The position numbers and the translations under genes were made by a program. DNA of 56,830 nt from a virus (lineage: Duplodnaviria; Caudoviricetes), in the IMG/VR virus record IMGVR_UViG_3300025327_000035, positions 1 through 56,830 of that record; one strand, 5' to 3'. The notes under the pieces were generated by a model that worked only from the letters and a program-made list of their open reading frames with translations, did no database searches and had not been told where the DNA came from. Positions 2,006-43,770 of the stretch are shown here, piece after piece; positions within the stretch are counted from its first letter, which is position 1; each line of letters starts with the position of its first letter.

Positions 2006-3214
2006 ATGGCAACGCGCATTCTCCAGACGACTTTCGTCACCAAGCAGGACGCGATCCTGGCCGGCATCGACACGCGACAGATTACCGCCGCCGATAAGGT
2101 GCGCTCTCTGGATTCGGCGTTGGCGCGTTACAGCCGCGACAAGCCGCGTGTCGTGGCGGTGGATTTCGCCGGCACCGACGCTGCCTATTACGTTCTCTAC
2201 GGCCTGACGACCGAGATCCTCAACTCCACGCGCGACGCCAGCATCGACCTGACCTCCAGTGGCGCCGATCAACAGTTGGCTGTGTCGTTCACGCTGCCGC
2301 GTCGGATGCAGATTCACGCCGTCCGCTTCTTGCTGCGGCGAACGGGCAGCCTGGCAGGGACGCTGGCCTGCGAGATCCGCCTGCCTTCGGGCAGCCTGCC
2401 CTCAGCGCTGGCTGCGCAGACCTCTACTGCGCTGACTTCTGCCTCGGCGCTGCCGCTCGGATTTGAATCGGGCAAGACTGAGTTCCGCTTCGACACGCCA
2501 TTGGCGCTGGACGCGGGCACGTACTATGCGGCGCTCGTGCCATCCGGCTATGCCTACGTCAACGGCACAACCGAGATCGTCCTCGGTGTCGATCAATCGA
2601 GCGTGACGAACACGGTCTTCACCTATGGCGGCGCGGTCTGGACGGCCTACGGCACGGACTCGGCCGGCGTGATCGAGGTCGTCGCCTCGCTGCCCGATTG
2701 GGATTACGAGTTCTCAGACATCAAAGGCGCGGACATCCCGGCGCCGACGATCACCGAGAACGAGATACCGCAGCCACTGGAGGACGAGGATTTCGCGTTG
2801 TCGCGCGTTGGGGAGACGCAATACCTCTACCTGCCGAATCACAGCCCGGCATCGACCGACATGGTTCGCCTGCACTACTCGGGCCGCTACCTGTTTAACG
2901 GCTCGCCGCTGGCGGCAGACATCCCGGCGGCGCACTTCGAGGCAGTGTGCACGCTAGGGGTGTACTTCGTTTGTACATGGCTTGCGGCGAAGTATTCTCA
3001 AAATGTAGACAGTGGCTTGTCCGCTGATATTGTAGACCGGCGCAATCAAAGTGACGTGATGGCAAGCAGGGCCAAAGAATTCTTGAGCCAATACGAGGCC
3101 CTACTTGGAAGAGGAGAGGGGGCAACTATTGTCCCTGCCATGAAATTCGGGGATTTAGATCGGGGCACGTACTCGAACCGGGATTTCATTTATCACAACA
3201 GGCGAAGGCGATAG
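2006..3214 (+). CDS. Head-tail adaptor (connector) protein with an inserted beta-sandwich domain
   Basis: Helical N- and C-terminal segments typical of adaptors (ALARYSRDKP; AVCTLG...AAKYSQ...DRRNQSD); ~170-aa beta-rich insert; synteny. Confidence 0.55.
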   Translation: MATRILQTTFVTKQDAILAGIDTRQITAADKVRSLDSALARYSRDKPRVVAVDFAGTDAAYYVLYGLTTEILNSTRDASIDLTSSGADQQLAVSFTLPRRMQIHAVRFLLRRTGSLAGTLACEIRLPSGSLPSALAAQTSTALTSASALPLGFESGKTEFRFDTPLALDAGTYYAALVPSGYAYVNGTTEIVLGVDQSSVTNTVFTYGGAVWTAYGTDSAGVIEVVASLPDWDYEFSDIKGADIPAPTITENEIPQPLEDEDFALSRVGETQYLYLPNHSPASTDMVRLHYSGRYLFNGSPLAADIPAAHFEAVCTLGVYFVCTWLAAKYSQNVDSGLSADIVDRRNQSDVMASRAKEFLSQYEALLGRGEGATIVPAMKFGDLDRGTYSNRDFIYHNRRRR

Positions 3215-3216
3215 GC

Positions 3217-3819
3217 ATGCCCACTCCCCCTCTTAGCCTTGAAATCGACACCTCGCAGATCGACAGCTTCGTCCAGCGCTTTCCGGTCTCCGGGCCGCGC
3301 ATCGCGGAGCGGGAGCTGCGCATCGGCTTGGATGACGCGCTCGGCTACACGGCGTCGCAGGTGGTGGACTTCACGCCGGTCAACACGGGCGTTCTGCGCG
3401 AGAGCGTCTACGACGAGATCGCCGGCATCAAGGTCGATGTCCTGGGCGGCACCGATCTGGAGGGCATCGTCTCCAGCAGTGACTACGAGCCGAAGGTGAA
3501 TGCGGTCGAGTTCGGGCGCAAGCCGGGCAAAATGCCACCGGTCGAGGCCATCGCGCTATGGGTGAGGCGCAAGGGACTGGCGGGCACGTACAGGGTCAAG
3601 ACAGGCAAGTCTGGCCGGCATGCGCGCATTGGCGGCCGCGAGAAGCAGCGCAAGGAAGACCTGAGCCTGGCCTGGGCGATCGCGATCCGCATCTCGCGGT
3701 TCGGCACGAAGGGCGCGTTCATGTTCGAGAAGGGCCTCGCGGCATCGGAAGCCTACATCGTCAAGGCGATGGATGCCGCGATCAACCGCATTCTAGCGGC
3801 GTGGTCGGGGATCAGGTGA
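3217..3819 (+). CDS. HK97 gp10-like tail completion protein
   Basis: TPVNTGVLRES, VEFGRKPGKMPP and GTKGAFMF motifs. Confidence 0.75.
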   Translation: MPTPPLSLEIDTSQIDSFVQRFPVSGPRIAERELRIGLDDALGYTASQVVDFTPVNTGVLRESVYDEIAGIKVDVLGGTDLEGIVSSSDYEPKVNAVEFGRKPGKMPPVEAIALWVRRKGLAGTYRVKTGKSGRHARIGGREKQRKEDLSLAWAIAIRISRFGTKGAFMFEKGLAASEAYIVKAMDAAINRILAAWSGIR

Positions 3820-3822
3820 CGG

Positions 3823-4563
3823 ATGACCGTCTCTATCGACCCGGAATATGAGACATTCGAGCAGGTCGCGGCGCAAATCCGCACGGCGCTAGGGACAGGC
3901 GTCAAAGTCTTTGAGTCCGTCCCGTTCCTGCCGAACGCGGCGGACTTCGACAAGATCGCGTTGGCGACATTCGAGTCCGCGAGGATGGCCTACTTCTGGG
4001 TCGTGTTCGTGGATGGCGTCGATCCAGAACAGATCGCGACGATGCACCAGCGTGAGCGCATCCTGGCGACGATCTACGGCTACATGAGCCGGAGTGACAA
4101 GCCGGGCGAGCCGGATGCCAGCGACGCGAGCGTGTCCGTGCCGTTCGCATCTGGCACGGCGACGGGCGGCTCGACGACGACGCTCACAGATTCGGGCGCG
4201 GCGTTCACGGTGGACGAGTTCGCCAACAGCCATGAGCTGTGGGTGACCTACGCGGACGGCACGATTGACCACCGACGCATCCAGAGCAACACGGCGACGC
4301 AGTTGACTATGCGTCAGGCGTTCGGCACGGCCATTAGTGCCGGCGTCACTTATGAGGTATGGCTGCGACCAACCGAGTGGATCATGCGCGAGCAGGCGCG
4401 CAAAGTGCTGGACGCACTCACTACGAATCGCAGCGGCGGTGGAGCCTGGTCAGGCAACCTGCCAAATTACCGCATCGAGGCAATCACGCTATACGAGCGC
4501 GGCATGTGGCGCGTGTCTTTCTCGCAAACGAAAGACACGTCGAAGGGAAAGAGCTATGTCTAA
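3823..4563 (+). CDS. Tail terminator-like protein with an inserted beta domain
   Basis: Synteny before the tail tube gene; GTATGGSTTTLTDSGAAFTVDEF...IQSNTATQLT insert. Confidence 0.45.
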   Translation: MTVSIDPEYETFEQVAAQIRTALGTGVKVFESVPFLPNAADFDKIALATFESARMAYFWVVFVDGVDPEQIATMHQRERILATIYGYMSRSDKPGEPDASDASVSVPFASGTATGGSTTTLTDSGAAFTVDEFANSHELWVTYADGTIDHRRIQSNTATQLTMRQAFGTAISAGVTYEVWLRPTEWIMREQARKVLDALTTNRSGGGAWSGNLPNYRIEAITLYERGMWRVSFSQTKDTSKGKSYV

Positions 4564-4828
4564 AGCAACCCTATATTTCCCCGGCATCGAGACCGGGCAG
4601 GTCTCCGTCGGCTATTCCACAGTCGACGTCGTGGATCACATCGCGGAGATAGATGAGGCTGAGGCAGCGGTCATTGCCTACTGGCAGCAGACGGCCAGCG
4701 CCACGATCGTGTCAACTGCGCAGCCGACTGCCGCCATTGATCCCGGCATTAACCCGTTCGACCCCGCGAGGCGGAGCGTAGGCAGCGATCCGGACGAAGA
4801 TGAACTTTCCATAGGAGCATCGAAATGA
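4556..4828 (+). CDS. Small hypothetical tail-region protein
   Basis: ATG 4556 overlaps the previous stop; its own stop overlaps the next start. Confidence 0.55.
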   Translation: MSKATLYFPGIETGQVSVGYSTVDVVDHIAEIDEAEAAVIAYWQQTASATIVSTAQPTAAIDPGINPFDPARRSVGSDPDEDELSIGASK

Positions 4829-6156
4829 CAGAGCAAGCAACCTGGCTCAGATGGCTGCGCATGGGACGCGAGAACGTCGCGTGGGGTACAGCCCCGGCCA
4901 ACGAGCTTGAATACAACATGAGTGGCGGGCTGTGGTATTCGTTCATCACCGCCTCGCAACTCGGCGCGCTCAAGCGCATTGAGGCAAAGCACCGCACCAA
5001 AGGCGCGACCGGGCAGCGCAGCCTCGACCAGCACCTGCCGGTAAGTGGCGCGCGCCGCAGCGAGGGCAGCCTCGACATTCCGTTCGTGTCCGACGTGGGC
5101 GGGCTGCTGCTGCGCACTGCGCTGGGCGCGGACTCGGCGGCGGACACGGACGATGTGATTCTGCTCACGGCGGGAGCCATCAACGAGACCCCTGAGACGT
5201 TCCTGGCTGCCGGCTTCGACAACCCCATCACGGCGAATCGCTACCCATACATCGAATGCGTCGTCACGGCGGCCGCGGCCTCGACGTTCATCGCTGGAAC
5301 CGTGGTGCTGACCGGCACCGACCCGGACGACCGGGCCATCACAGAGACGATCGTCACGCCGGCACTGGCCGCAACCGAGTCCTATACGGTTTACAGCAAA
5401 CTTTCGTACAAGACCTTGACCAGCATCGTCATCACCGGCTGGTCGAGCGGTACCGGCACACTCGTCGCAACGGCAATCCAGTACACGACGCACACGATCA
5501 CCTGCGCGGATACGAACGGCTCGCTCGCCATCGACGAGCACGGCGATCCGGCGGCGGCCAGCGGCAACATCTGGCGCTATACCGGCCTGGTCATCCCGCA
5601 ACTGAACCTGGCGTTTGCGGCAACCGAGGAAGAGGGCCTATTCGTCATCACGCCGACGCTGGCCGGCAAGTTCCCGACTGCAATCGCGGACCCAACCTAC
5701 CGCCTGCCCCCGCTCACGCCCTGGCCTTCGTGGATATGCTCGGTCACACGCGGCGGATCTGCCTACGCCAAGATTCAGGCAGCGAATTTCCAGATCAACA
5801 CAGGCACGCGCCTGCGCCGGGCGGCAACCGGCTCGCAGGACCCGGCCGGCAAGGTGGACGGCGGGCGAACGGTGCAGATCAGCGGAAGACTCTGGTTCGA
5901 CGACGAGACAGAATACGACGACTGGGTGAATAACGCGCTGGCAAATTACGAATTCACGTTTACCAGCCCGTATGCCGTTACATCTGCAATCAAGCAGAAC
6001 TTGTTACTGGAATGCACGGAATTCGTGTGGCTCACATACGACCCGGTCGAGGACGACGGCTTGATAGTCGCAGACTTCACCGCTTATAACAAAGCCCACG
6101 CCAGCGACAACGTGATTAAGGCTACGCTGATCAACACGAAGAACGGAGCGTACTGA
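4825..6156 (+). CDS. Major tail (tube) protein with an internal insertion
   Basis: GRENVAWGTAP start; GARRSEGSL and RTVQISGRLWF strands typical of tail tube proteins; lies before the chaperone and tape measure genes. Confidence 0.7.
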   Translation: MTEQATWLRWLRMGRENVAWGTAPANELEYNMSGGLWYSFITASQLGALKRIEAKHRTKGATGQRSLDQHLPVSGARRSEGSLDIPFVSDVGGLLLRTALGADSAADTDDVILLTAGAINETPETFLAAGFDNPITANRYPYIECVVTAAAASTFIAGTVVLTGTDPDDRAITETIVTPALAATESYTVYSKLSYKTLTSIVITGWSSGTGTLVATAIQYTTHTITCADTNGSLAIDEHGDPAAASGNIWRYTGLVIPQLNLAFAATEEEGLFVITPTLAGKFPTAIADPTYRLPPLTPWPSWICSVTRGGSAYAKIQAANFQINTGTRLRRAATGSQDPAGKVDGGRTVQISGRLWFDDETEYDDWVNNALANYEFTFTSPYAVTSAIKQNLLLECTEFVWLTYDPVEDDGLIVADFTAYNKAHASDNVIKATLINTKNGAY

Positions 6157-6629
6157 TGGAGCCATTCAAGCAGCGGATTCGCATCGAACTGAGCAAGCTC
6201 AATCCGCAATACCCGGCCGGTCACACCTGGACGTTCTGGTCCTCGCCGACGATGAAGACCTTCCTCGCGCTGTTCGGCCCGGCTAACTACCTGCGTCTGA
6301 AAGAAGCGGATCAGCCGATGGACGAAGAGACCTACCGCGAAGCGGAAGACGCCTATTTCGCCGCCATCAGCGAATGCATCCTCGACACCGGCGAATCGAC
6401 CGACCTGGCCGGCCAGCCGCTCGATTTATCCACGCCCGAAAAGGCGCGCGCCGCGTTCGCCTCGGACGCTATCGACGTAGAGTTGCTCGGCGGCATCATC
6501 ACCGACTACACGAACTACCTGACCGAGCGTTACGGGAGCCTGCTAAAAAAAGCCGCAGCCTGGTCGGGAAGTACCGTTGGCAGCTCAGGCAACGGGCAGA
6601 CGGCTATCACGTCCCCGACGCCATCCTGA
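6156..6629 (+). CDS. Tail assembly chaperone (gpG-like)
   Basis: Located between tail tube and tape measure; contains slippery CTA AAA AAA GCC. Confidence 0.75.
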   Translation: MEPFKQRIRIELSKLNPQYPAGHTWTFWSSPTMKTFLALFGPANYLRLKEADQPMDEETYREAEDAYFAAISECILDTGESTDLAGQPLDLSTPEKARAAFASDAIDVELLGGIITDYTNYLTERYGSLLKKAAAWSGSTVGSSGNGQTAITSPTPS

Positions 6630-19666: not shown

Positions 19667-20106
19667 AGGCAAGCAGCATCTTGACCATCTGCGCCGGGGG
19701 CGGATTCCGTTCCCGGATCATGGCCGTGCTGCTCGCGCAGCGAACGGGCCTGCGCACGGCCTACGCCGGCACGACGACGGACTGGCAGGGGCGTGTGAAC
19801 CCGCACGCCACGGCGGTCTTGGAGCATGCCGGCATCTATGATCGTCCGCTCATCTCTCACCAGGTTCGGGCCGATGAGATCACCGCCGCCGGCATCGTGA
19901 TCTGCGCCGAGCGCCGGCATCGCGAGCAGTTGTGTGAGATGTATCCCGAGGCAGCGGAGAAGATGTTCACATTGGCGGAATTGGCCGGCGTCGAGGACGT
20001 CGCCGATCCGACGCCGATCGCGCACCTGGGGCACCAGCTGACGCTCGACGAGCTGATGCCGACGTATCAGGAGATTCGTGCGGCAGTGGAGCGGATTGCG
20101 CTATGA
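19663..20106 (+). CDS. Low-molecular-weight protein Tyr/Arg phosphatase (ArsC/LMW-PTP fold)
   Basis: N-terminal P-loop ICAGGGFRS (C-X5-R-S), YAGT, and DVADP general-acid motif. Confidence 0.85.
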   Translation: MKASSILTICAGGGFRSRIMAVLLAQRTGLRTAYAGTTTDWQGRVNPHATAVLEHAGIYDRPLISHQVRADEITAAGIVICAERRHREQLCEMYPEAAEKMFTLAELAGVEDVADPTPIAHLGHQLTLDELMPTYQEIRAAVERIAL

Positions 20107-21137
20107 ACTTCCACGAAGTATCAAACTTATTCCCATTGATGTCGGACGAAGAGCTAGACGAGCTTGCAGACGACATCCAGGAAAATGGCCTCAAGGAGGC
20201 TATCTGTATTCACGACGGCAAGATCATTGATGGCCGCAATCGGTACCTGGCGTGCGAGCGCGCAGGCGTGGAGCCGCACTATCAGGAATGGGATGGCCAA
20301 GGCTCGCTGGTGTCGTTCGTCGTTTCGCTGAACCTCAAACGGCGCCATTTGAGTGAGAGCCAGCGCGCAATGGTCGCGGGGAAGTTGGCGAATATGCGTT
20401 CGGGTTCACGGACCGATCTTGTGAGAAATGGTGCGGAACCTCCCGCCAATTGGCGGGAGGTTAGTCAGACCGAAGCTGCAACCTTGCTTAATGTCGGCGA
20501 GCGCAGCGTGCAGCGCGCCAAGACGGTCATCGATCGCGGTGTACCCGAGCTTCAACAGGCCGTCGAGCACGGAGAGGTGTCTGTATTAGCCGCGTCCGAA
20601 ATCGCCCGCGCGCCACAGGAGAAGCAGCGCGAGCGCCTCAACGTGCACTTCTCAAGCAGCAGCGATGACCATAATACGCCGAGACATATACTCGACATGG
20701 TGATGGCTGTGATGGGCGAGATCGACCTCGACCCATGCAGCAACAGCAAGGAATCACCGAACGTCCCGGCCAAATACCATTACACAAAAAGCGACGATGG
20801 ATTAAGCAAAAAGTGGTTTGGCCGGGTCTATATGAATCCCCCTTACGGCGATGAAATCCCGAAATGGGTAGGCAAGCTGGTCGATACCTTCGAGTCAGGT
20901 GAAGTCAAGGAGGCCATCGCATTACTCCCGGCCAGGACGGACACCGCCTGGTTTAACCAGGTATGCAGCTACACTATTTGTTTTGTGCGAGGCCGGCTCA
21001 AATTCGGAGATGCGAATAACTCGGCCCCGTTCCCGTCCGCAGTTGTCTACCTCGGCTCTCGCTCGAAGCGCTTCATAAAAGCCTTTTCTGAGATTGGGCC
21101 GGTATTCCAAAGGGTCGATCGAGATGTACAAATTTGA
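20103..21137 (+). CDS. ParB-like N-terminal domain fused to a phage Dam N6-adenine methyltransferase
   Basis: LADDIQENG...IIDGRNRY; HNTP...DLDPCS, MNPPYG, LLPARTDTAWF, RGRLKF, APFPSA. Confidence 0.9.
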   Translation: MNFHEVSNLFPLMSDEELDELADDIQENGLKEAICIHDGKIIDGRNRYLACERAGVEPHYQEWDGQGSLVSFVVSLNLKRRHLSESQRAMVAGKLANMRSGSRTDLVRNGAEPPANWREVSQTEAATLLNVGERSVQRAKTVIDRGVPELQQAVEHGEVSVLAASEIARAPQEKQRERLNVHFSSSSDDHNTPRHILDMVMAVMGEIDLDPCSNSKESPNVPAKYHYTKSDDGLSKKWFGRVYMNPPYGDEIPKWVGKLVDTFESGEVKEAIALLPARTDTAWFNQVCSYTICFVRGRLKFGDANNSAPFPSAVVYLGSRSKRFIKAFSEIGPVFQRVDRDVQI

Positions 21138-21582
21138 TATACAGCTCGAAAAAGGCGAACTTCAAGAAAAACGCCTCGATGTGTTTTTCTCGAAGTGGTA
21201 CACCATCCGCAAGACTTCCCGGCAGATGCAGCGCGCGGGCATCGATCGGGTTTATCGGAGAAACGGCAAGGAGACGCGGATTGAATATAAGTCCGATTGG
21301 ACAGCCAGCAAAACGGGAAACGTGTTCATCGAGACGGTATCCGTGGATAGCGAAAATAAGCCGGGCTGGGCCTATACCTCACGAGCAGACATCTTGATCT
21401 ACCTGCTGCCTGATGACGATTTGGTCTACGTGGTAAAAATGAAAGACATTCGGAGCCACATTAAGGAATGGGCCAAGCGATACTCAGAGAAGTCGATCCA
21501 AAATCAGGGCTATTGCACGCGTGGACTGCCTGTCCCACAAATGGAGTTTGAAAAGCTTGCGGTTCAAGTATTGGTGATATAG
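21124..21582 (+). CDS. PD-(D/E)XK nuclease-like protein
   Basis: GID...IEYKSD...TGNVFIE...PGW..TSRAD; coupled to the methyltransferase. Confidence 0.6.
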   Translation: MYKFDIQLEKGELQEKRLDVFFSKWYTIRKTSRQMQRAGIDRVYRRNGKETRIEYKSDWTASKTGNVFIETVSVDSENKPGWAYTSRADILIYLLPDDDLVYVVKMKDIRSHIKEWAKRYSEKSIQNQGYCTRGLPVPQMEFEKLAVQVLVI

Positions 21583-21590
21583 GCACGAGA

Positions 21591-22493
21591 ATGGCGATCA
21601 AAACTCAAATTGAGTGGTGTGATTCGACTGTCAACGCAATGGCCGGCTGCGACGGCTGTGAGCTGTGGATCCCGAAGGCCGGCGTCCACGACTGCTACGC
21701 AGGCGTCTTGACGGAGCGGTACGGGGGCCGCTCCGGCTGGCCCGCGTCATTCGATCAGCCCCGGCACTTCCCCGGACGCATTGAGGCGGCGCTGCGCTGG
21801 CCCGATCTGGCCGGAACGAAGCGCGCCGACAAACCGTGGCTCGACGGAATGCCGCGCTTGATCTTCCTCGACGACATGGGAGACACGTTCACAGAGAGCC
21901 TTGACGCGGACTGGCTGCCGCCGCTCATAGAGCCGATGGCCCGCGCACCGCACGTCTGGATTTTCCTGACGAAGCGGCCGCGGCGGATGCGCGCATTCTT
22001 CGAGCGGGTGGGCATCCCGGCCAACTTCTGGCTGGGCACGACCGTCACTGGCCCGGCGACGCTTGGCCGGCTGCGCGACTTGCAGAGGCTGCGCGACATC
22101 GGCGATAACATCCTGTGGTGCAGCTTCGAGCCACTGATGGCGCCGCTTGAGTTCTCTGTCCGACAGGGGAACGGGGTGTTTGAATCCAGGGAAGGTTTTG
22201 TCAACGACGAGCCGGTTGACCTCGATCTCGAGCCACTCATAGACTGGGCGGTAGTCGGCGGCGGCAGCCACATGAAGCGCAAGATGAAGCCAGAATGGGC
22301 TTACGATTTGATCCATTGGCTTGATGTGACCGACGTCCCGACATTCTTCAAACAATGGGGGGACTTGTCCGCGAACCCGGACCCGGGCGACCCGACCGCG
22401 CGGGAGAACGGCGGGTACGCGAAAGGCGGACGAACAATCGGCGGCAGGACGCTGAGCGAATTTCCGAAGGTGGTTGGACTTGAGCGACAATAG
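21591..22493 (+). CDS. DUF5131 / phage Gp37-Gp68 family protein
   Basis: TQIEWCDSTVN..GC..C...DCYA, DMGDTF, LTKRP, SFEPL, DWAVVGG, FFKQWG. Confidence 0.9.
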   Translation: MAIKTQIEWCDSTVNAMAGCDGCELWIPKAGVHDCYAGVLTERYGGRSGWPASFDQPRHFPGRIEAALRWPDLAGTKRADKPWLDGMPRLIFLDDMGDTFTESLDADWLPPLIEPMARAPHVWIFLTKRPRRMRAFFERVGIPANFWLGTTVTGPATLGRLRDLQRLRDIGDNILWCSFEPLMAPLEFSVRQGNGVFESREGFVNDEPVDLDLEPLIDWAVVGGGSHMKRKMKPEWAYDLIHWLDVTDVPTFFKQWGDLSANPDPGDPTARENGGYAKGGRTIGGRTLSEFPKVVGLERQ

Positions 22494-22686
22494 CCGCCTG
22501 CAAATTATCACAGAAGCTCGCGCCATCATCGGCGGCGACGACGTGCCGCTGTGGTCGGTCGTCGCCGCGCTGGCGCTCGGCTATCAGGGAGAAGGCGTCG
22601 TGCTGCATGTGGCGCGTGTCATCCTGGAGTGGCACGATCTGTATGCCGTGAAAACGGATCGCGCTGCCAAGATCGGGCCAAGGTGA
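22474..22686 (+). CDS. Small hypothetical protein
   Basis: Overlaps the DUF5131 stop. Confidence 0.4.
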   Translation: MDLSDNSRLQIITEARAIIGGDDVPLWSVVAALALGYQGEGVVLHVARVILEWHDLYAVKTDRAAKIGPR

Positions 22687-22703
22687 AACGGATAAATTCC
22701 ATG

Positions 22704-22732
22704 TTGACAACAATTCAAAGCGGGCTTATACT
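22704..22732 (+). promoter_or_regulatory. Sigma70-type promoter
   Basis: TTGACA-N17-TATACT upstream of the HTH gene. Confidence 0.8.
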
Positions 22733-22760
22733 GCGTCGCAACTGTCACATAGGGGGCGCA

Positions 22761-23000
22761 GTGAAAAGAGAGCGAATCTTGAACATTCGCGAAGTTGCCG
22801 AAGTCTTTGGCGTATCGACGAGGACAATCCTGCGCAGGCTGGCGGTCGGATGGCTCCCCGGCGCGTATAAGTCCGGTCCGGGGAAGACATCGAAGTGGCT
22901 GTTTCCCGAAAGATCGGTAAACGCGCAGATCGAGGAACAGCAGTCAGAGCGTGCCTTGACAGCGCCGCAGAAGAAGCGGCGCGCACAGTCCGAGGACTGA
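22761..23000 (+). CDS. Excisionase-like / HTH_17 DNA-binding protein
   Basis: ILNIREVAEVFGVSTRTILRRL..G.LPGAYK.G....KWLFP. Confidence 0.8.
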   Translation: MKRERILNIREVAEVFGVSTRTILRRLAVGWLPGAYKSGPGKTSKWLFPERSVNAQIEEQQSERALTAPQKKRRAQSED

Positions 23001-23037
23001 ACGCGCCGCCGCGCTTCGGCCACTACCCTGATAGCCC

Positions 23038-23087
23038 CCTCCGCCAAGAGCCGGGCTGATCAAGGCACCCTAACAACCGAGTAGCGC
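23038..23087 (+). promoter_or_regulatory. Early leader motif, copy 2
   Basis: CCTCCGCCAAGAGCC-N14-ACCCTAACAACCGAGTAGCGC. Confidence 0.6.
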
Positions 23088-23144
23088 TTGCACGACATCC
23101 CCATGCGTAGGGGATGGTGTGCCCCATTTGGCCGACGGCCTCAG

Positions 23145-23188
23145 CAGGGGCTTATGAGTCCCCTGCTCTGCCACTGAGCTACGCCGCC
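23145..23188 (-). other. 5' half of a tRNA(CAT), Met/Ile2 type; candidate attP
   Basis: Minus strand GGCGGCG TA GCTC AGTGGCA GAGC A GGGGA CTCATAA GCCCC TG gives the acceptor 5' strand, D arm and anticodon arm; no T arm follows. Confidence 0.8.
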
Positions 23189-23219
23189 AGCGCCAAATGA
23201 GCAAAGCGCTTCGGACTGG

Positions 23220-23228
23220 ATTATATCA
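23220..23228 (-). promoter_or_regulatory. Extended -10 promoter facing the tRNA half
   Basis: Minus strand TGATATAAT about 30 nt upstream of tRNA position 1. Confidence 0.6.
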
Positions 23229-23230
23229 CG

Positions 23231-23258
23231 AAACTCTACGCAGGTAGAGTTTTTGTTT
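23231..23258 (+). terminator. Hairpin + T-tract before the replication operon
   Basis: AAACTCTAC-GCAG-GTAGAGTTT then TTGTTT. Confidence 0.5.
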
Positions 23259-23282
23259 CGACATTCAGTTCAGGAGCTAACG

Positions 23283-23486
23283 ATGCAATACGATCTATAT
23301 AAAGTGTTTACAAAGGATTCTTTGAGAGCGACGGTCTACGTCGCGTCCAATGAGGATCCTGACTTCGAGATTCGACGTTGGCTGGGCCAACAGAACGTGG
23401 CGCCGGCAAACGTGTCGAGCATTTCTCCGGCCGGATACCGGACGGAAGATGTCCGGCCGAAGAACACGCCGTTCGTGGCGAGCTAG
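23283..23486 (+). CDS. Small hypothetical protein
   Basis: AGGAG RBS before ATG 23283. Confidence 0.55.
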   Translation: MQYDLYKVFTKDSLRATVYVASNEDPDFEIRRWLGQQNVAPANVSSISPAGYRTEDVRPKNTPFVAS

Positions 23487-23495
23487 GAGAGCGCA

Positions 23496-23705
23496 ATGAG
23501 TGCAGAACTGGCGAAAGCGTATTGGCTCGTCCTTGGTAGTGGCTGGACCGACGATGGGGCGCGCCAACGTTTCAAGGAAAAGTTTGGATACCATGCGGAA
23601 CAGGTCATCCGAGAGAAGGGCTATGCGTGGGTCGGTCCGATCAAAGAGGCAACATTGAAGCCGACACCCAGGCCAGAGCCGACGCCGGACTTGATTGTTC
23701 TATAA
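23496..23705 (+). CDS. Small hypothetical protein
   Basis: AGGAG RBS; ARQRFKEKFGYHAE. Confidence 0.6.
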   Translation: MSAELAKAYWLVLGSGWTDDGARQRFKEKFGYHAEQVIREKGYAWVGPIKEATLKPTPRPEPTPDLIVL

Positions 23706-23819
23706 ATGGATCGAGCCACGTCCCCCAACGTGGCCCGCTCCCCCAAGGTGGTGCAGTTGCTGACATACCTGCACCCCCAGTATACACCCGTCTGTCAAGA
23801 CAGGCAATGGGGGTCAATG

Positions 23820-24647
23820 ATGAGTGTCAAGGCAATGACTGCCGTATTCGATGCGCGCAGACTGACTCCAACCGAAAAGCTAGTGCTCTTGGCGCTGGCC
23901 GATCATGCCTCCGAGGATGGATTGAATATCTATCCGAGTGTGGAGACTGTGTGTAAGAAGACCGCATTAGGAGACCGCACAGTAAGGCGCACCATCAAGT
24001 CGCTGAGAAGCGAAAAGAGAGGCATCCTGTTTCTGGTCAGGCGAAAAGGGCGACTGCAAAATGAATACGGCATGAATCTGGCGAAGTTGCAAGACCTGCC
24101 AGACGATCCACTGAGACCTGCCACTGTGGCAGGTCAAGACCTGTCAGACGATCCACTGAGACCTGCCACTGTGGCAGGTAAATCATCAGTAGAATCGTCA
24201 GATCATCCATCAGGAAATCTTAACGCTGCTACGCCGCGTAACGCTCGCCCGCAAGACCTGCACTTTGAAGCTCTCTCGGATGTCTCAAACCTGACACCGC
24301 CCGGGCGGGACTGGAAGCAGCTCACGCGGACCGCCGCCGGCCAGCTCAACCGCTACGCCAAAGAGCTGAGAGACGCCGGCGCGACACCGGAACAGATCGC
24401 GGCCTTTGGGCCGTGGTGGTACGCAAACGATTGGCGCGGCCAGAAGCGACAGCCGCCGAAGCCGGCGGACGTAGCCAGAGAGTGGCCGCGCTACAGGAAC
24501 GGAGATCGAACGAATGGAACACATCAGCAAAGCACTGGCCCGTTTGCAGGACTCGATCCCGCCGAGCGCGAACGGCTCCAGGCGCTCGCCGACAAGATCA
24601 ACGCTCGACGAGCGGCGAAGCGCGCAGCGCAGCGCGGCGCTGCGTGA
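23820..24647 (+). CDS. Replication initiator (N-terminal HTH_36-type winged helix)
   Basis: MSVKAM...KLVLLALADHA...YPSVETVCKKT.LGDRTVRRTIKSL; internal tandem repeat; followed by DnaC; the start could be upstream (23706/23817). Confidence 0.85.
   Translation: MSVKAMTAVFDARRLTPTEKLVLLALADHASEDGLNIYPSVETVCKKTALGDRTVRRTIKSLRSEKRGILFLVRRKGRLQNEYGMNLAKLQDLPDDPLRPATVAGQDLSDDPLRPATVAGKSSVESSDHPSGNLNAATPRNARPQDLHFEALSDVSNLTPPGRDWKQLTRTAAGQLNRYAKELRDAGATPEQIAAFGPWWYANDWRGQKRQPPKPADVAREWPRYRNGDRTNGTHQQSTGPFAGLDPAERERLQALADKINARRAAKRAAQRGAA
24090..24179. repeat. 2 x 45-bp tandem repeat, probable replication origin iterons
   Basis: CAAGACCTG(C/T)CAGACGATCCACTGAGACCTGCCACTGTGGCAGGT x2, each ending in the palindrome ACCTGCCAC-T-GTGGCAGGT. 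Confidence 0.85.
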
Positions 24648-25368
24648 GTACGCCGAGCTGCTGGGATCGACGCCCGGCATCGAGCGTTGTCCGAAGTGTG
24701 ACGGCTCCGGCGTCGTGGTCGATCCGCTTGGCTTCGGGCATTCGTGCCCGGAGTGTGAGCCTCGTCGGCAGGCCGAGCGGATGCAGGTGATGTCGGGCCT
24801 GAACGCCGACGAGCGCGCTGTTCGGCTCGACGACGTCGACTTCACCGGCGGCGGCACGGATGGACTGATCGTCGCGGCGCGGACGTTCCTGGTGCGGCCC
24901 GCCGGCATCCTGACACTGTGGGGCGGTCCGGGCAACGCCAAGACAATGGTGCTGCAGGCCATCGTCGGCGAGTGCCTGGCGCGCAGCGTGCCGGCGGTGT
25001 ACACGACATTCTACGATCTCGCGGGTTACGTGCGCGAGGCGTTCCGGGACGACAGCGAATCGGCCTGGCGGCGCATGCAGCGATTCCAGTCGGTGCGCGT
25101 GCTGTGCATTGACGAGCTGGACAAGGTGAAGGATACAAGTTGGTTGCGCGAGCTCGAGACAGCGATCATCGACAAGCGCTACCGCGATGGCCTGGCTGGT
25201 CTGACTGGAACGGTGATCGCCATGAATGAATCACCTGACTCATTGCCGGAGTGGATCAAGAGCCGGCTGCGGGATGGGCGCAATCGGATCGTGCACAATT
25301 CCGATCCGGATGTGCGGACGGCGATGTCGGATGAGAGCGGTCCGAGCGCGCGGCCGGCGGGGTTGTGA
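24514..25368 (+). CDS. DnaC/IstB-like AAA+ helicase loader
   Basis: CPKC...CPEC zinc motif; variant Walker A GGPGNAKT; Walker B LCIDEL; IKSRL. Confidence 0.9.
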   Translation: MEHISKALARLQDSIPPSANGSRRSPTRSTLDERRSAQRSAALREYAELLGSTPGIERCPKCDGSGVVVDPLGFGHSCPECEPRRQAERMQVMSGLNADERAVRLDDVDFTGGGTDGLIVAARTFLVRPAGILTLWGGPGNAKTMVLQAIVGECLARSVPAVYTTFYDLAGYVREAFRDDSESAWRRMQRFQSVRVLCIDELDKVKDTSWLRELETAIIDKRYRDGLAGLTGTVIAMNESPDSLPEWIKSRLRDGRNRIVHNSDPDVRTAMSDESGPSARPAGL

Positions 25369-33817: not shown

Positions 33818-34117
33818 ATGCCAACGGCATCATGGGGAAACGGTGGTTGGGCGGATTTGGTCAATGTCGGGGATGTAAGAGTTTTGCTCATCCGCGCCGG
33901 ACGCGGGCCGTATGCGTCCAGGCAGCGTCCGGCCAGTGAGGCCGGATGGACGAAAGATGAATTGAGGGAGATCGCCGTGGAGGCGGTCGAGAAGGCAAAG
34001 TTTCTCGAATACGGCATTTTGTCCCTCTGCGTGAACTTGAGTCGGGGCTGCATTCTCAGCGGCTCAAATTCGTGGAAGACGACAGGTAGAATCGAAATCA
34101 AGTTGCCGCCAAAGTAG
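33818..34117 (+). CDS. Hypothetical protein
   Basis: GGAGAGGA RBS. Confidence 0.5.
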   Translation: MPTASWGNGGWADLVNVGDVRVLLIRAGRGPYASRQRPASEAGWTKDELREIAVEAVEKAKFLEYGILSLCVNLSRGCILSGSNSWKTTGRIEIKLPPK

Positions 34118-34190: not shown

Positions 34191-35132
34191 CTACTCTTTC
34201 TCCGGCGGCAGCCACGACACCTCATTATGCCGCCGGTGTATCTCTTCCTCATAGTAGATCGCATAAAACGTCAACGTCGTCCTGACATCCTCGTGACCGA
34301 GGATCTCCTGCAGCTCGCGCGGATTCGCGCCGCGCTGGATGGCGCCGCGTGCGAAGCCGTGCCGGAAGGCGTGCGGATTGAATCGGCCCGTCACGCCAGC
34401 GCGACGCGCCAGGCGCTTGAGCACCTGGTAGATGCCGCCGGTCGTCAGCGGTCTGCCATGCACGCCGACGAAGATGAGCGGCCCGGCGTCAGTCGGCCGC
34501 TCCTCGTCGATGTAGCGCCGCAGCGCATTCGCGGCGCGCTCGGGCAGATGCACGCGCCTGGCCTTGTCGCCTTTCTCGCGCACGAGGATAACACGCGCGT
34601 CGAGGTCGACGTCGTCCACCCGCAGGCCGGCCAGGCCGCCGGCGCGGATCGCCGTGCCGGCAAGCACACAGACGATGGCGTAGTCGCGCAGCCCCCGCTT
34701 GCTTCCAGCGGGGGGCTGCGCCGCATCGAGCAGGCGCAGCAGGTCGTCGAAGCGCAGGTCTCGCGGCGGCATTTTCGGAAGCTTCGGTCGCTTGAGGCGG
34801 TGCGCGGGATTGGCGGTGATGACCCGCTCCTCGACGAGCCAGTTGAAAAAGCGCTTCCAGGCGCGCACATGCTTGTGGAGCGTGTAAACGGAGAGGCCGC
34901 CGGACTGCGCCGGGCGCGAGGGATGATCGGCGTAGCGCGTCGTGCGGTCGCGGAGTTGGGCGTAGACCAGGCGCAGATCGTCTATCGTGACCTCGCCGAC
35001 GGGCTTGTCAATTGCGCGCAGCGGGCGCAGGCACTTCTCGTAATCGGCGACAGTAGCGGGCTTCACCTCCAGGCCGACGGCAAACAGGAATCGGTCGATG
35101 GCCTGCGAGATGTGAAGAGTGTCGGCCGGCAT
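34191..35132 (-). CDS. Tyrosine recombinase / integrase (XerC/D-like)
   Basis: Catalytic R (TAIRAG), K (EKGDK), HAFRH, LGH and Y (TTLTFY); N-terminal SAM-like domain. Confidence 0.95.
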   Translation of the reverse strand: MPADTLHISQAIDRFLFAVGLEVKPATVADYEKCLRPLRAIDKPVGEVTIDDLRLVYAQLRDRTTRYADHPSRPAQSGGLSVYTLHKHVRAWKRFFNWLVEERVITANPAHRLKRPKLPKMPPRDLRFDDLLRLLDAAQPPAGSKRGLRDYAIVCVLAGTAIRAGGLAGLRVDDVDLDARVILVREKGDKARRVHLPERAANALRRYIDEERPTDAGPLIFVGVHGRPLTTGGIYQVLKRLARRAGVTGRFNPHAFRHGFARGAIQRGANPRELQEILGHEDVRTTLTFYAIYYEEEIHRRHNEVSWLPPEKE

Positions 35133-41070: not shown

Positions 41071-43770
41071 ATGCCTAGGCCGAAACGCCCTGACACCATC
41101 TCCCGCTCACACTTCAACCGTACCGTACGCGCCCTACGCCGCGACATGGACGCTCTGCGCGCCGATTCCAAGAAGCGCATCCGCGAGGCCTACGCCTCCG
41201 GTCTCGACGACGGCAACGACGAGCCGCGATTCACTTCCGGCGGCAGAGTCTTTGGGCGCGGCTACCGCTCGATGCGGATGACGGTCCGCGACGAGACCTC
41301 GACCAGCCAGGAAGCGGCCATTGAGCGCAGCTACCGCCAATGGGCGACGAACCCGCTCGCGCGTTCCATCGCCGACATACGCACAGATTACGTCTGGGGC
41401 GACGGGGCAACCGTCACCGCCGATCACGAGGATGTCCAAGCCATCCTGGATAGGCACCTGAAAGACGAGGTCAACGACTGGCAGGGCAAAGGCGAGCAGC
41501 GTGTGCGCGACCTGGGACTGTACGGCGAACTAGTGATAGAGGCATTCGTCCGCTACGACGGCGTCCTGGGTGACGGGCGCGTGCGTCTGGGCGCGATCGA
41601 TGCAGCCGAGATCGACCAGATCGTCACCGACGCGGAGAACCGCGAGGAGATCGTCGCCATCCGGCTCAAGGCCATTGCCGGCGAGAATCAGAACGCCGGG
41701 CGGCTATTGAAGGTCATCGCCGAGGACGAAGCGACCGGGCGGCTCGTCGGCGTCCGGCACGAGGCGCTCGCGGCAGGCCGGCAATACGACGCCGATCAAA
41801 TCATCCGGCGCGCTGGCCGGCGCTGGCGCGTGACCGAGGCGAATCAGACGACCGATCGTTTCGCGTCTGGCTGGGGCAATGTCCGGGTAACTGAATGCTG
41901 CTATGGCCGGGCCTGGCGCGTGAGCGAGGCGACCGGCGGCATCATGTATCAGGACCACGTCGGGCGCGAGGTAAACGGCGAGCCATACGACGGCCAGTGC
42001 TTCATCGTCCAAGTCAACAAGACGAGCATTGGCTTGCGTGGACGACCGGATGGCCTGGCGTTGATCGACTGGCTCGACCGCTATGACCAGATGTTCTTCG
42101 ATATTCTGGAGCACGCGGCGTTGCTCAAGGACATCGTGTGGAATCTGTTGGCTAAAGGCGCAGACGATGCGATGGTAGCGAGAAGGGTTCGAGAATTTCA
42201 GGACGCTGTCTCACGCTCCGGTAAGGTCTTTGGTCACAACGAAGAAGTTGATCTGGCTCCACTTAACCCCGACCTCAAAGGCGCCGACTGGGACGCGTTG
42301 AGCGAGACTGTCCTGAAGCTCATCTCCGGCGGCGCGCGCATCCCGGTCTACATGCTCGGCTCAGGCGGCGACGCGAACCTGGCGACCGCGACCGCCCAGG
42401 GCAGCCCGACCTATAGAGGATTCAAGACCCGGCAAGGCATTGTGCGTCGAATGCTTGAGCGCGCCCTGACCTACGTCGTCGATTGCGCCGTCGAGGCCCG
42501 GCGTCTGCCGGAGTGGATCGAGCTGCTCGACGAGAATGGCGAGCCGAAGATGGACAAGCACGGCAACCCGGTTCGCGTCCGGGTGCGCGAGGCATTCACC
42601 GTCCAAATGCCGGAAATCTCACCGAAGGACACGGCGGCGGCGGCGACTGTGTTCGCGTCCATCGTCACGGCGGTGACGACCGCGTACGGCATGAAGCTCA
42701 TGCCTCTGCAAACAGCGATTGAGCTGATCGCACGCGGGGCAGAGCTGCTTGGCGTCGAAATCGACATCGACAAGGTCGTCGAGGCGCTGAGCGAGATGGC
42801 CGCGCCGGACACGAGCGGCCTGGCTGATGCGCTGGATAGGATAGGCACCAGTGAGCCAGCGGCGGCAGTTCAATTAACCCCCTCTATGGTCCAGGGGGCA
42901 CTGCAAATCGTTCAGCAGGTATCCGCTGGTGAATTGCCGTATGAGGCTGGTCTCAATACCCTAGTTACGCTATTTGGGATCAGCGAAGATGCAGCCAGGA
43001 GTTTGCTTGGCGGCGGCAATGGGCGGAAACCCGGCTCTGATCTATCTGCGTTGCTGGCGGTGATGAATGAGGGCGCACGGCAGGAGCCGAAGGGGAATGG
43101 AGACAAACACGCCATAGAGATGCGTATCACGCATCTTCACGACGAGCGCGCAATGGAGGAGGCATCCATGCTGAAATTCTACGAGATGATGCGCGAATAC
43201 GAGTCGAGGATCAACGGCCTCCTGGCCCAGATGGAGGATTCACGCCGGAGCGATGAGATACGCCGGGTGCTCGAATCGATCCGGCTCGCACAAGCAGAAG
43301 CTATGGCATTATTCCAGTCAGGTCCATCTCGAGCAAGCGAGGCCCAGTCGCCCGTTACGGTTCAAATCCAACCCAACGAAGAAGTTCTTTCGAGAGCGTT
43401 CCAGACTATGCCCGCTCCTGTGGTGAATGTGCCTGCTCCCGTGGTGAACGTCGAAATGCCCGTGGGCGATCTGGTCGAAGCGCTGAAGCGCGTGGCTGAA
43501 TCGGGCCGATCGGGTAATACTCAGATCGCGCAGATGATCGACCTCCTGGGCCGGATCCAGGAAGCAGCGCAGTCGAGCGATGTGCAGCCGATTATCAACA
43601 TCACTGTGCCGGAGCAGCCGCCGCCGGTTGTGTTGAACACGATAAATGTTCCGCCGCAGCCTGCTCCTAATGTCACGGTGGAAATTCCTGAGCAGAAGCC
43701 CGTCACGAAGCGGGTCATCCGCGATAGGCAGGGAAATATCACGGAAATCAAAGAAGAGCCGGAGGGATAA
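41071..43770 (+). CDS. Portal protein with a long C-terminal extension
   Basis: TNPLARSI...DYVWG, LYGEL, RGRPDG, GDANLATA; follows TerL; PAPVVNV repeats and KRVIRDRQGNI tail. Confidence 0.85.
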   Translation: MPRPKRPDTISRSHFNRTVRALRRDMDALRADSKKRIREAYASGLDDGNDEPRFTSGGRVFGRGYRSMRMTVRDETSTSQEAAIERSYRQWATNPLARSIADIRTDYVWGDGATVTADHEDVQAILDRHLKDEVNDWQGKGEQRVRDLGLYGELVIEAFVRYDGVLGDGRVRLGAIDAAEIDQIVTDAENREEIVAIRLKAIAGENQNAGRLLKVIAEDEATGRLVGVRHEALAAGRQYDADQIIRRAGRRWRVTEANQTTDRFASGWGNVRVTECCYGRAWRVSEATGGIMYQDHVGREVNGEPYDGQCFIVQVNKTSIGLRGRPDGLALIDWLDRYDQMFFDILEHAALLKDIVWNLLAKGADDAMVARRVREFQDAVSRSGKVFGHNEEVDLAPLNPDLKGADWDALSETVLKLISGGARIPVYMLGSGGDANLATATAQGSPTYRGFKTRQGIVRRMLERALTYVVDCAVEARRLPEWIELLDENGEPKMDKHGNPVRVRVREAFTVQMPEISPKDTAAAATVFASIVTAVTTAYGMKLMPLQTAIELIARGAELLGVEIDIDKVVEALSEMAAPDTSGLADALDRIGTSEPAAAVQLTPSMVQGALQIVQQVSAGELPYEAGLNTLVTLFGISEDAARSLLGGGNGRKPGSDLSALLAVMNEGARQEPKGNGDKHAIEMRITHLHDERAMEEASMLKFYEMMREYESRINGLLAQMEDSRRSDEIRRVLESIRLAQAEAMALFQSGPSRASEAQSPVTVQIQPNEEVLSRAFQTMPAPVVNVPAPVVNVEMPVGDLVEALKRVAESGRSGNTQIAQMIDLLGRIQEAAQSSDVQPIINITVPEQPPPVVLNTINVPPQPAPNVTVEIPEQKPVTKRVIRDRQGNITEIKEEPEG

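Follow-up and report, generated by a model that had tools for sequence, protein, structure and literature searches.

A putative attachment site of reversed orientation at the tRNA(CAT) anticodon loop in a tailed phage assigned to Anaerolineae

Mobile elements that integrate into transfer RNA (tRNA) genes replace the 3′ end of the target gene, a rule that underlies most finders of prophage and island boundaries and, equally, the usual explanation of tRNA genes as safe landing sites. Phage attachment sites (attP) located in the anticodon loop reportedly form a general class among the tyrosine integrases that target tRNA genes, and integrative elements recombining with the 5′ part of a tRNA gene are also said to have been described. 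Here, we analysed a stretch of 56,830 nucleotides (nt) of DNA from a soil phage (IMG/VR record IMGVR_UViG_3300025327_000035; this whole stretch is hereafter called the window), which is classed as linear and about 69% complete and carries, on its minus strand, a promoter-like site followed by the 5′ half of a tRNA gene with the anticodon CAT. For archaeal elements, the passages of Krupovic et al. (2019; PMC6563490) on this subject describe recombination with the 5′ part of tRNA genes as considerably rarer than recombination with the 3′ part, and integration into the 5′ part is a known but rare principle. As in the element described here, such elements must supply the 5′ part, and hence the promoter, of the target tRNA.

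We read the element in the window as an attP, belonging to a temperate tailed phage with Anaerolineae hosts, whose integration would take place in the anticodon loop of tRNA(CAT) in reversed orientation and would replace the 5′ half of the gene, where replacement of the 3′ half is usual. To this reading we assign a probability of about 0.72. Three points seem to go beyond the known principle: such a tailed-phage lineage occurs in Chloroflexota, a single group of integrases has sister attP sites of either orientation, and the unused half shows a mirror-image decay; no literature search was aimed at this combination, and we do not claim that it is unpublished.

The tRNA(CAT) 5′ half and its host counterparts

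A host tRNA(CAT) gene (L004) matches the stretch 23188-23148 (minus strand) of the element without a difference over its positions 1-41 (41 of 41 nt; blastn-short, E 8.8e-19), a resemblance far beyond chance. The exact 37-mer formed by the first 37 nt was found at 12 loci of GTDB species-representative genomes, whose titles are all those of Chloroflexi, Chloroflexota, Anaerolineae or Anaerolineales metagenome-assembled genomes (MAGs). It starts a complete tRNA(CAT) at 11 of these loci, and at the remaining one (L007) the contig ends 9 nt past the match. Wherever the 3′ end of the host gene is visible (11 genes), its acceptor 3′ strand is CGCCGCCA, which pairs with the GGCGGCG of the phage copy. 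On the basis of this tRNA match, the uncultured phage is assigned to Anaerolineae hosts.

The likeness extends upstream of the tRNA. In the window, 31 nt of the minus strand lead from TATAAT to tRNA position 1 (GGCGGCG..., 23188), and the host tRNA genes have a TATAAT at a similar distance; the phage leaders are like those of the host genes, as can be seen by setting the leader of a related phage element, G001 (TATAATCCGCGCTCGAAAG), beside that of the host locus L012 (TATAATCTCGCGCGCTCGAAAG). The phage promoter and leader look like the host's own, and the resemblance of the leaders suggests that a host gene was the source of the 5′ part. The window leader also holds CCGAAGCGC (23214-23206), one copy of the direct repeat D5, whose second copy lies near the end of the unit (23019-23011, minus strand). 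AAGCGCT occurs further at 23205-23211 and 23083-23089, and RNAalifold pairs the leader copy with the middle copy; since every copy of the AAGCGCT and CCGAAGCGC repeats is invariant, they could equally be protein sites. Near the tRNA at the 12 Anaerolineae loci tilS was not found, so that only a metagenomic island described below (L038) hints at an identity of tRNA-Ile2 for tRNA(CAT). In one Anaerolineales MAG (G005), two different contigs (L083 and L086) each contain a complete copy of the tRNA gene. The promoters of the copies are nearly identical, and the acceptor stem of one copy reads GGCGGTG; the two may represent strain variants or a duplication.

Past the anticodon arm, the element is not a tRNA gene. 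ARAGORN called no tRNA gene in the window, and Rfam gave no match there at gathering score. At loose thresholds, the tRNA model RF00005 reached 23.7 bits (gathering score 29) in an alignment from which the T arm is deleted, 7 bases standing in for 19 model positions in that region; in the same alignment, the stretch CGTCGGCCA (23137-23129, minus strand) appears as a remnant of the acceptor 3′ strand, able to pair with GGCGGCG with one bulge. No tRNA 3′ half was detected elsewhere in the window, where the best match was 12 nt long (E 0.078) and lay inside the long open frame 41071-43770, and the region 22500-23700 matched no intron family even at E <= 10. Like tRNAs (RF00005) and T-armless tRNAs, the element has an acceptor-like helix, a D arm and a CAU anticodon arm; unlike them, it scores below the gathering score, its acceptor helix is bulged and its 3′ end is buried in a longer presumed transcript, and its anticodon stem is lost in G001. 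We do not regard it as a member of either family.

These results agree in large part with an earlier note on this DNA. The 41-nt match supports the minus-strand tRNA 5′ half through the anticodon arm that it had described, and the BLASTN search it had proposed for naming the host led to the tRNA(CAT) of Anaerolineae (Chloroflexota). As it had foreseen, the tRNA caller (ARAGORN, 0 genes) reported no full tRNA, and neither this program nor Rfam nor blastn revealed a T arm and acceptor strand behind an intron in the window. Its statement that both the T arm and the 3′ acceptor strand are missing holds for the former, whereas CGTCGGCCA remains of the latter. The loop CTCATAA is indeed centred in an 8-bp inverted repeat (23167-23143), full-length in three of the five related elements treated in the next section, and the extended -10 element that it had placed upstream is found as TGATATAAT at 23228-23220, with TGNTATAAT present in all five.

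Related elements and sister sites of classical orientation

In IMG/VR, the 37-mer matched a single other contig, G001, in which the element lies mid-contig between the same neighbours as in the window. A metagenome scan for the end of the 5′ half followed by anything other than the host 3′ strand yielded 60 loci, of which 48 run on as T-arm-like sequence (judged by eye, without ARAGORN) and 12 do not; three of these 12 (L075, L066 and L069) are of the window's kind. The window, G001, L075, L066 and L069 are together referred to as group A. The window and G001 come from distant phages, with 28% identity between their Rep proteins and 56% between their DnaC-like proteins. The flanks are common to the window, G001, L075 and L066, with the HTH_17 gene on one side and a small open reading frame (ORF), Rep and DnaC-like genes on the other; the upstream side of L069 gave no match to window genes, though it contains the same hairpin and promoter. 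The five elements, found in independent contigs of like arrangement, are embedded in phage DNA and are thus very unlikely to be an assembly artefact or a host junction. GenBank phages showed no DNA match to 22400-24700 of the window, and the motif TGCAAGCGCTNNTCGGTTG occurred in IMG/VR only in G001 and in one chance match inside a coding region (L017).

Within group A, the two sides of the anticodon loop have fared differently. TGNTATAAT stands at the same place in all five elements, the 5′ half through ACTCATAAGC shows not a single change (5/5), and the AGCGC motif of the leader is likewise invariant; a hairpin lies upstream of the promoter in each of them, with altered stem letters in L069 and G001. 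On the other side, the T arm is absent and the 3′ half decayed in all five, and ARAGORN found 0 tRNAs on the searched loci of the relatives. Past the loop, all five follow a common plan. The 3′ strand of the anticodon stem survives as a remnant except in G001, and it is followed, with no T arm between, by an acceptor remnant (equivalents of CGTCGGCCA are present in the four relatives), a hairpin designated H1, a block of the form (A/T)(C/T)TCGGTTG..., a long stem, and a terminal hairpin, in which the unit ends about 180 nt past the loop in all five elements. The 8-bp inverted repeat has one mismatch in L075 and is lost in G001.

The sole recombinase found in the window is the Xer-like tyrosine integrase at 34191-35132, its only match to PF00589, and no match to PF00239 was obtained. 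A scan of IMG/VR with this integrase returned three relatives, L089 (40% identity, over the full length, with HxxR, LGH and Y kept), L090 (41%) and L091 (42%). In L089 and L090, (G)GACTCATAAGCCCTTGG occurs within about 100 nt of the integrase stop codon and is followed by an intact T arm and acceptor 3′ strand; behind this intact tRNA(CAT) 3′ half comes ...TGTGCCTCTTC(G/A)GTTGGTAAGG, which contains the block TTC(G/A)GTTGGTAAGG. L091 has no such attP site within 3 kb; a tRNA-Ala is nearby. Searching with a 21-mer across the loop gave six viral loci, namely four complete tRNAs (L105-L108) and two attP sites of the same kind (L103 and L104), where the integrase genes (38% and 36% identity, respectively) are followed by the core and an intact 3′ half and then by TTCGGTTGTTAAGG in L103 and TTCGCCTGTTAAGG in L104. 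The downstream block has the version TTCGGTTGGTAAGG in both G001 and L089 and TTCAGTTGGTAAGG in L090, and its type at the classical sites can be written as TTCGGTTG(G/T)TAAGG. Since ARAGORN called no tRNA at the L089, L090, L103 and L104 sites, their tRNA 5′ halves are not intact; left of the core, they keep only fragments of the 5′ half, such as GCTCAGT...GAACAAAGG in L090. The T stems of all four pair and differ between sites by paired changes. Judged by sequence, these four are textbook attP sites carrying the tRNA 3′ half.

The core ACTCATAAG is common to the five elements of group A, the four classical sites and the host tRNA. A facing HTH_17 gene was confirmed in L089, and L103 matches the HTH_17 protein of G001, which makes two of the four classical relatives. 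The window element can be aligned column by column with the classical sites, having the same core, a T-armless counterpart of the 3′ half, the block and, as in L089, the facing HTH_17 gene; on account of this alignment, we read it as the attP of the integrase group, although the integrase gene is 11 kb away. The window thus shares the core, the tRNA(CAT), the block and the integrase group (36-41% identity) with the classical anticodon-loop sites, but the latter have an intact 3′ half directly after the integrase gene, whereas in the window the intact half is the 5′ one, preceded by a promoter, the T arm is gone and the integrase gene lies at a distance. The earlier note had made its interpretation depend on relatives inserted in tRNA(CAT), and the relatives do target this tRNA.

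Two further searches concerned parts of these sites. The 17-mer CTCTTCRGTTGGTAAGG was found at 12 loci in IMG/VR, three of them attP sites (in the G001, L089 and L090 records); the other nine were rejected by eye as unrelated, their flanks being without the tRNA(CAT) core. An alternative attP beside the integrase gene was considered at 34095-34111 (plus strand), about 80 nt from the integrase stop codon, where 15 of 17 positions match the host tRNA 3′ end (AAATC.AGT.GCCGCCA). Given its E value of 11, its lack of the ACTCATAAG core and its position on the strand opposite to the integrase gene, unlike the sister sites, it was treated as chance; at most, it may be a relic of an older attP adjacent to the integrase.

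Other arrangements around the same tRNA were encountered. L107 (12331-13300, IMG/VR) has a complete tRNA(CAT) with a partial integrase homologue after it (36% identity to the window's over 152 aa) and an inverted partial copy of the 3′ side of the anticodon arm (GACCAAGGGCTTA) upstream, which may be another arrangement of the same system. An Anaerolineales MAG (L011, 1688-2810) encodes an integrase homologous to the window's (33% over 285 aa) some 200 nt downstream of its tRNA(CAT) and on that gene's strand; this locus looks like a classical island at the same tRNA gene.

The proposed reversed orientation weighed against other readings

The element has what is expected of an attP, namely a host-identical block including the loop, an inverted repeat round the loop and homology to the attP sites of related integrases, and a tyrosine integrase (the one PF00589 gene) is encoded in the same genome, though at 11 kb, where such genes usually adjoin the attP. 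It also has what marks an element recombining with the 5′ part, since it carries the 5′ part with a promoter and no working 3′ part (5/5). Classical sites and group A are mirror images of each other; the former keep the 3′ half and have a decayed 5′ half, and the latter keep the promoter and the 5′ half and have a decayed 3′ half. This asymmetry, with an invariant 5′ half and a decayed 3′ half in distant phages, fits a 5′ half that must work in the lysogen. The simplest reading is that, in group A lysogens, the phage would contribute the promoter and 5′ half of the working tRNA gene, and the host its 3′ half.

In the mechanism that we propose, the integrase would act on a site 11 kb from its own gene and exchange strands within ACTCATAAG. 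At one junction, the phage extended -10 element, the leader and tRNA positions 1-38 would be joined to the host 3′ half to give a working gene, provided that the phage promoter fires. At the other, the host promoter and 5′ half would be joined to the decayed, T-armless 3′ remnant of the phage, where the structured stretch and the terminator hairpin would block read-through into the facing excisionase-like gene. In the presumed lysogens, host transcription at the two junctions would be kept out of the phage genes by the hairpins that bound the element on either side (23231-23252 and 22976-23009). A common ancestor with a whole tRNA gene in its attP, followed by the loss of either half, would explain both types of site. 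The proposal of the earlier note that the tRNA would be rebuilt from the phage 5′ half and promoter at an anticodon-loop attP gains support from the homology and the decay pattern, with integration itself presumed; its idea of a tRNA under prophage control can be retained only in the sense of a phage-borne promoter, and this promoter resembles the host's own.

A bolder version of this scheme, which we regard as tentative and rather unlikely as a whole, holds that a single integrase lineage had an ancestral attP with a whole tRNA(CAT), that its descendants kept opposite halves, and that in lysogens the tRNA, possibly the single tRNA-Ile2 for AUA, would depend on the phage promoter while the strong tRNA promoter of the host would drive a conserved, structured chimeric RNA of about 240 nt. 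If so, this RNA, consisting of the tRNA 5′ half, H1 and the long stem, could have a function of its own, such as marking or stabilising lysogeny or blocking a tRNA-directed enzyme; most descendants of the lineage would have kept the 3′ half by the integrase gene, and in the window's group the integrase gene would have moved away.

The preferred reading of a reversed attP has several implications. One group of related integrases would show both orientations at the same core, and the mirror-image decay of the unused half would illustrate how a switch of orientation can happen. Tools that expect a 3′ fragment by the integrase gene would miss such prophages or place their boundaries wrongly. A reversed insertion would make the expression of the host tRNA depend on phage DNA and, were this tRNA the tRNA-Ile2, the host promoter would be left driving a new chimeric RNA.

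A number of observations weigh against integration as proposed. No lysogen and no attL or attR junction of the window's lineage was found, an absence that is weak evidence in MAG samples. The 12 host loci with an exact match show host-type tRNAs only (11 complete, one cut by the contig end), the pattern of the element occurred in 0 of 401 Anaerolineae genomes, the DnaC-like protein was detected in 0 of 201 Anaerolineales genomes at E <= 1e-30, and all five group A copies are in the unintegrated arrangement. The window integrase is 11 kb from the element, whereas those of the four classical relatives are adjacent to their attP; the G001 contig (35.6 kb, 43% complete) yielded no integrase, and the 15-kb contig of L075 yielded none that is related to the window's. 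The promoter is without a -35 match, and the right-hand core arm has diverged in G001 (GCACACGCT), so that a symmetric core is not universal. Finally, H1 and the long distal stem, with their paired changes, weakly point to selection on an RNA, for which a plain attP arm has no need.

Further searches for integrated copies bear on these points. In five host genomes searched with the whole element, only tRNA matches were obtained, and the second copy in G005 proved to be a complete tRNA. Logan contigs of four soil runs, compared with 21500-25000, break inside the tRNA part and are uninformative on integration; their many loose ends (at 23148/23149 and 23188/23189) stem from other tRNAs in the community, and assembly is poor at junctions that lie in repeats. 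The phage is present in the soil runs X1 and X2, and no RNA run containing it was listed.

Among the rival readings, the one that survives best takes the element for a stranded former attP, in a lineage that descends from phages integrating into tRNA(CAT) but no longer integrates here, with the promoter and 5′ half kept for another use or the integrase engaged in another role such as dimer resolution. The Xer-like character of the integrase and its distance from the element, its lack of a counterpart in the G001 and L075 contigs, and the five unintegrated copies without a lysogen would all suit this explanation. However, both sides of a stranded site should decay, yet the 5′ half, the leader motif and the -10 element have stayed unchanged in phages with only 28% identity between their Rep proteins, and the decay has affected the 3′ half; we consider this reading improbable.

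Slightly less probable still is that the main product is a phage noncoding RNA of about 240 nt, with a T-armless tRNA-like 5′ domain (acceptor-like helix, D arm and CAU anticodon arm) and a structured 3′ domain, which might be a regulator or a decoy for an enzyme or nuclease that binds tRNA; this would be compatible with an attP. Such an RNA would account for the conserved promoter and the terminal hairpin of the unit, and Rfam aligns the element end to end with the tRNA model minus the T arm. The position of H1 folds as a hairpin in all five elements (-14.6 to -19.2 kcal/mol), with inner stems that differ by paired changes, and H1 is absent from L089 and L090, being specific to elements of the 5′-half type; RNAalifold on the five sequences predicted 60 pairs, 10 of them with paired changes, and its structure includes the acceptor-like helix, H1 and the long distal stem. 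Against this stand the lack of any Rfam family at gathering score, the loss of the anticodon stem in G001, and a covariation term of +2.69, which is slightly unfavourable and comes from only five sequences. Moreover, in alignment with the sister sites, the tRNA-like 3′ strand corresponds to their real 3′ half in decayed form, which explains the likeness without a function.

Two other readings, an intron-interrupted or split tRNA and a host-phage junction or assembly chimera, are both very unlikely. Group I introns occur in the anticodon loops of bacterial tRNAs, including a tRNA(CAU), and a 3′ half could lie in the roughly 31% of the genome missing from the window, but the intron and 3′-half searches described above were negative, as was ARAGORN, and the unit ends in a hairpin about 180 nt past the loop in all five elements. 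Assemblies often break or mis-join at tRNA repeats, and in two soil runs the Logan contigs do break within the tRNA part, but a chimera can hardly account for one arrangement that recurs in five independent contigs, four of which (the window, G001, L075 and L066) have phage genes to either side.

Reversed insertions in another lineage and the surroundings of the element

A reversed orientation at tRNA(CAT) was also seen in another lineage. The metagenome contig L038 contains a 4.2-kb island of reversed orientation at a tRNA(CAT) beside tilS, in which a host-side remnant of the 5′ half running into foreign sequence (about 6595-6549) and a complete tRNA(CAT) (2346-2272) lie on the same strand 4.2 kb apart; the 5′ half of the complete tRNA differs from the remnant by one D-loop base. 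The displaced host 5′ fragment is visible at the far end of the island; none was seen for the window's lineage. The tyrosine integrase gene of the island, whose product is 33% identical to that of the window, is directed away from the complete tRNA, with its start 133 nt upstream of that tRNA, and CAGTTATAGGCTCAA occurs in both arms. The flanks hold tilS (TIGR02432, 165 bits, cut-off 93.6) and an FtsH-like frame recognised by eye, with an enolase-family gene on the other side. Left junctions related to that of L038 were found in L056, L063, L064 and L067, and the L056 integrase is 67% identical to that of L038. These arrangements indicate that reversed orientation occurs in nature at tRNA(CAT). 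Like the window element, the L038 island and its kin are reversed at the tRNA(CAT) anticodon loop and have an Xer-like integrase; the island differs in its small size, its other host, an integrase gene 133 nt from the supplied 5′ half, its other arms (CAGTTATAGGCTCAA) and the lack of a tRNA-like 3′ remnant. In L073, the integrase gene points away from a 5′ half about 140 nt downstream of it, which runs into a decayed 3′ half, and this locus looks like the unintegrated form of a further reversed element. The window integrase shares 36-41% identity with the classical ones and 33% with that of L038; judged by these pairwise identities only, the flip of orientation therefore probably arose more than once.

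Besides these junctions, the L038 island (2272-6595) contains a c-di-GMP-II-GCG riboswitch (5985-6069, 56 bits), and two c-di-GMP-II riboswitches lie beside the junction in L067. tRNA(CAT) 5′ halves running into non-tRNA sequence were also noticed in three other metagenome contigs: integrase-like segments flank the 5′ half in L043; L060 has an integrase gene just upstream on the same strand; and L030 gave no integrase match.

The features of the element and the genes related to it are listed in Table 1.

Table 1. Positions of the element's parts and of associated genes in the window
Feature	Position	Strand	Remark
Hairpin of 9 bp, AAACTCTAC / GTAGAGTTT	23231-23252	both	directly upstream of -10; inverted repeat I9
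Extended -10 promoter element TGATATAAT	23228-23220	(-)	from sequence; no -35 match
Leader, presumed start site to tRNA position 1	23213-23189	(-)	start site presumed
tRNA(CAT) positions 1-41 (acceptor 5′ strand, D arm, anticodon stem 5′ strand, loop, first 3′-strand bases)	23188-23148	(-)	
8-bp inverted repeat AGCAGGGG / CCCCTGCT	23167-23160 / 23150-23143	(-)	flanks the 7-nt loop; equals the anticodon stem
Core ACTCATAAG, presumed crossover region (anticodon loop)	23159-23151	(-)	crossover position presumed
Anticodon loop CTCATAA	23158-23152	(-)	
Decayed 3′ half: anticodon-stem 3′ strand CCCCTGCT, T arm deleted, acceptor remnant CGTCGGCCA	23150-23129	(-)	
Hairpin H1, outer stem GCAC..GTGC, inner stem CATCCCC/GGGGATG	23122-23090	(-)	inverted repeat I6
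P′-arm block ACTCGGTTGTTAGGG	23082-23068	(-)	common to classical attP sites
Hairpin of 16 bp, end of minus-strand unit and stop codon of HTH_17 gene	22976-23009	both	inverted repeat I1
HTH_17 (excisionase-like) gene facing the element	22551-23000	(+)	Pfam HTH_17 23.5 bits, cut-off 27
Rep (O-like) gene	23706-24647	(+)	same side as the small ORF and the DnaC-like loader
Xer-like tyrosine integrase, 313 aa	34191-35132	(-)	PF00589 125 bits; below XerC/XerD equivalog cut-offs

Of the two edge hairpins, the one upstream of the promoter is followed by a T-rich run on the plus strand, and it would therefore work as a terminator that insulates the P arm at its edge. The other is likely a two-way terminator; its T run is weak, and the equivalent hairpin in the relatives was judged by eye in alignment rows. 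A simple promoter and terminator scan called neither the minus-strand promoter, which lacks a -35, nor either hairpin. The HTH_17 gene matched the PHROG annotation 'excisionase and transcriptional regulator' (E 1.8e-6), and its homologues in G001 and L089 score above the Pfam cut-off (35.7 and 43.9 bits, respectively); its real start is probably near 22761, past a promoter-like site at 22704-22732.

By its genes, the window belongs to a tailed phage, encoding a terminase large subunit, a portal protein, a head protease/major head protein and an endolysin-like peptidase. Nearly all long open frames are on the plus strand, so that the element is antisense to its neighbours. Just before the HTH_17 gene, a frame at 20103-21137 fuses a ParB-like N-terminal region to a Dam-type DNA methyltransferase, and another at 21591-22493 belongs to DUF5131. 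A 941-aa protein encoded at 53579-56404 matches the families of both the head maturation protease and the major head protein, and it may be a protease/capsid fusion. Between 44001 and 48000, the G+C content falls to 0.50-0.52, compared with about 0.60-0.64 elsewhere.

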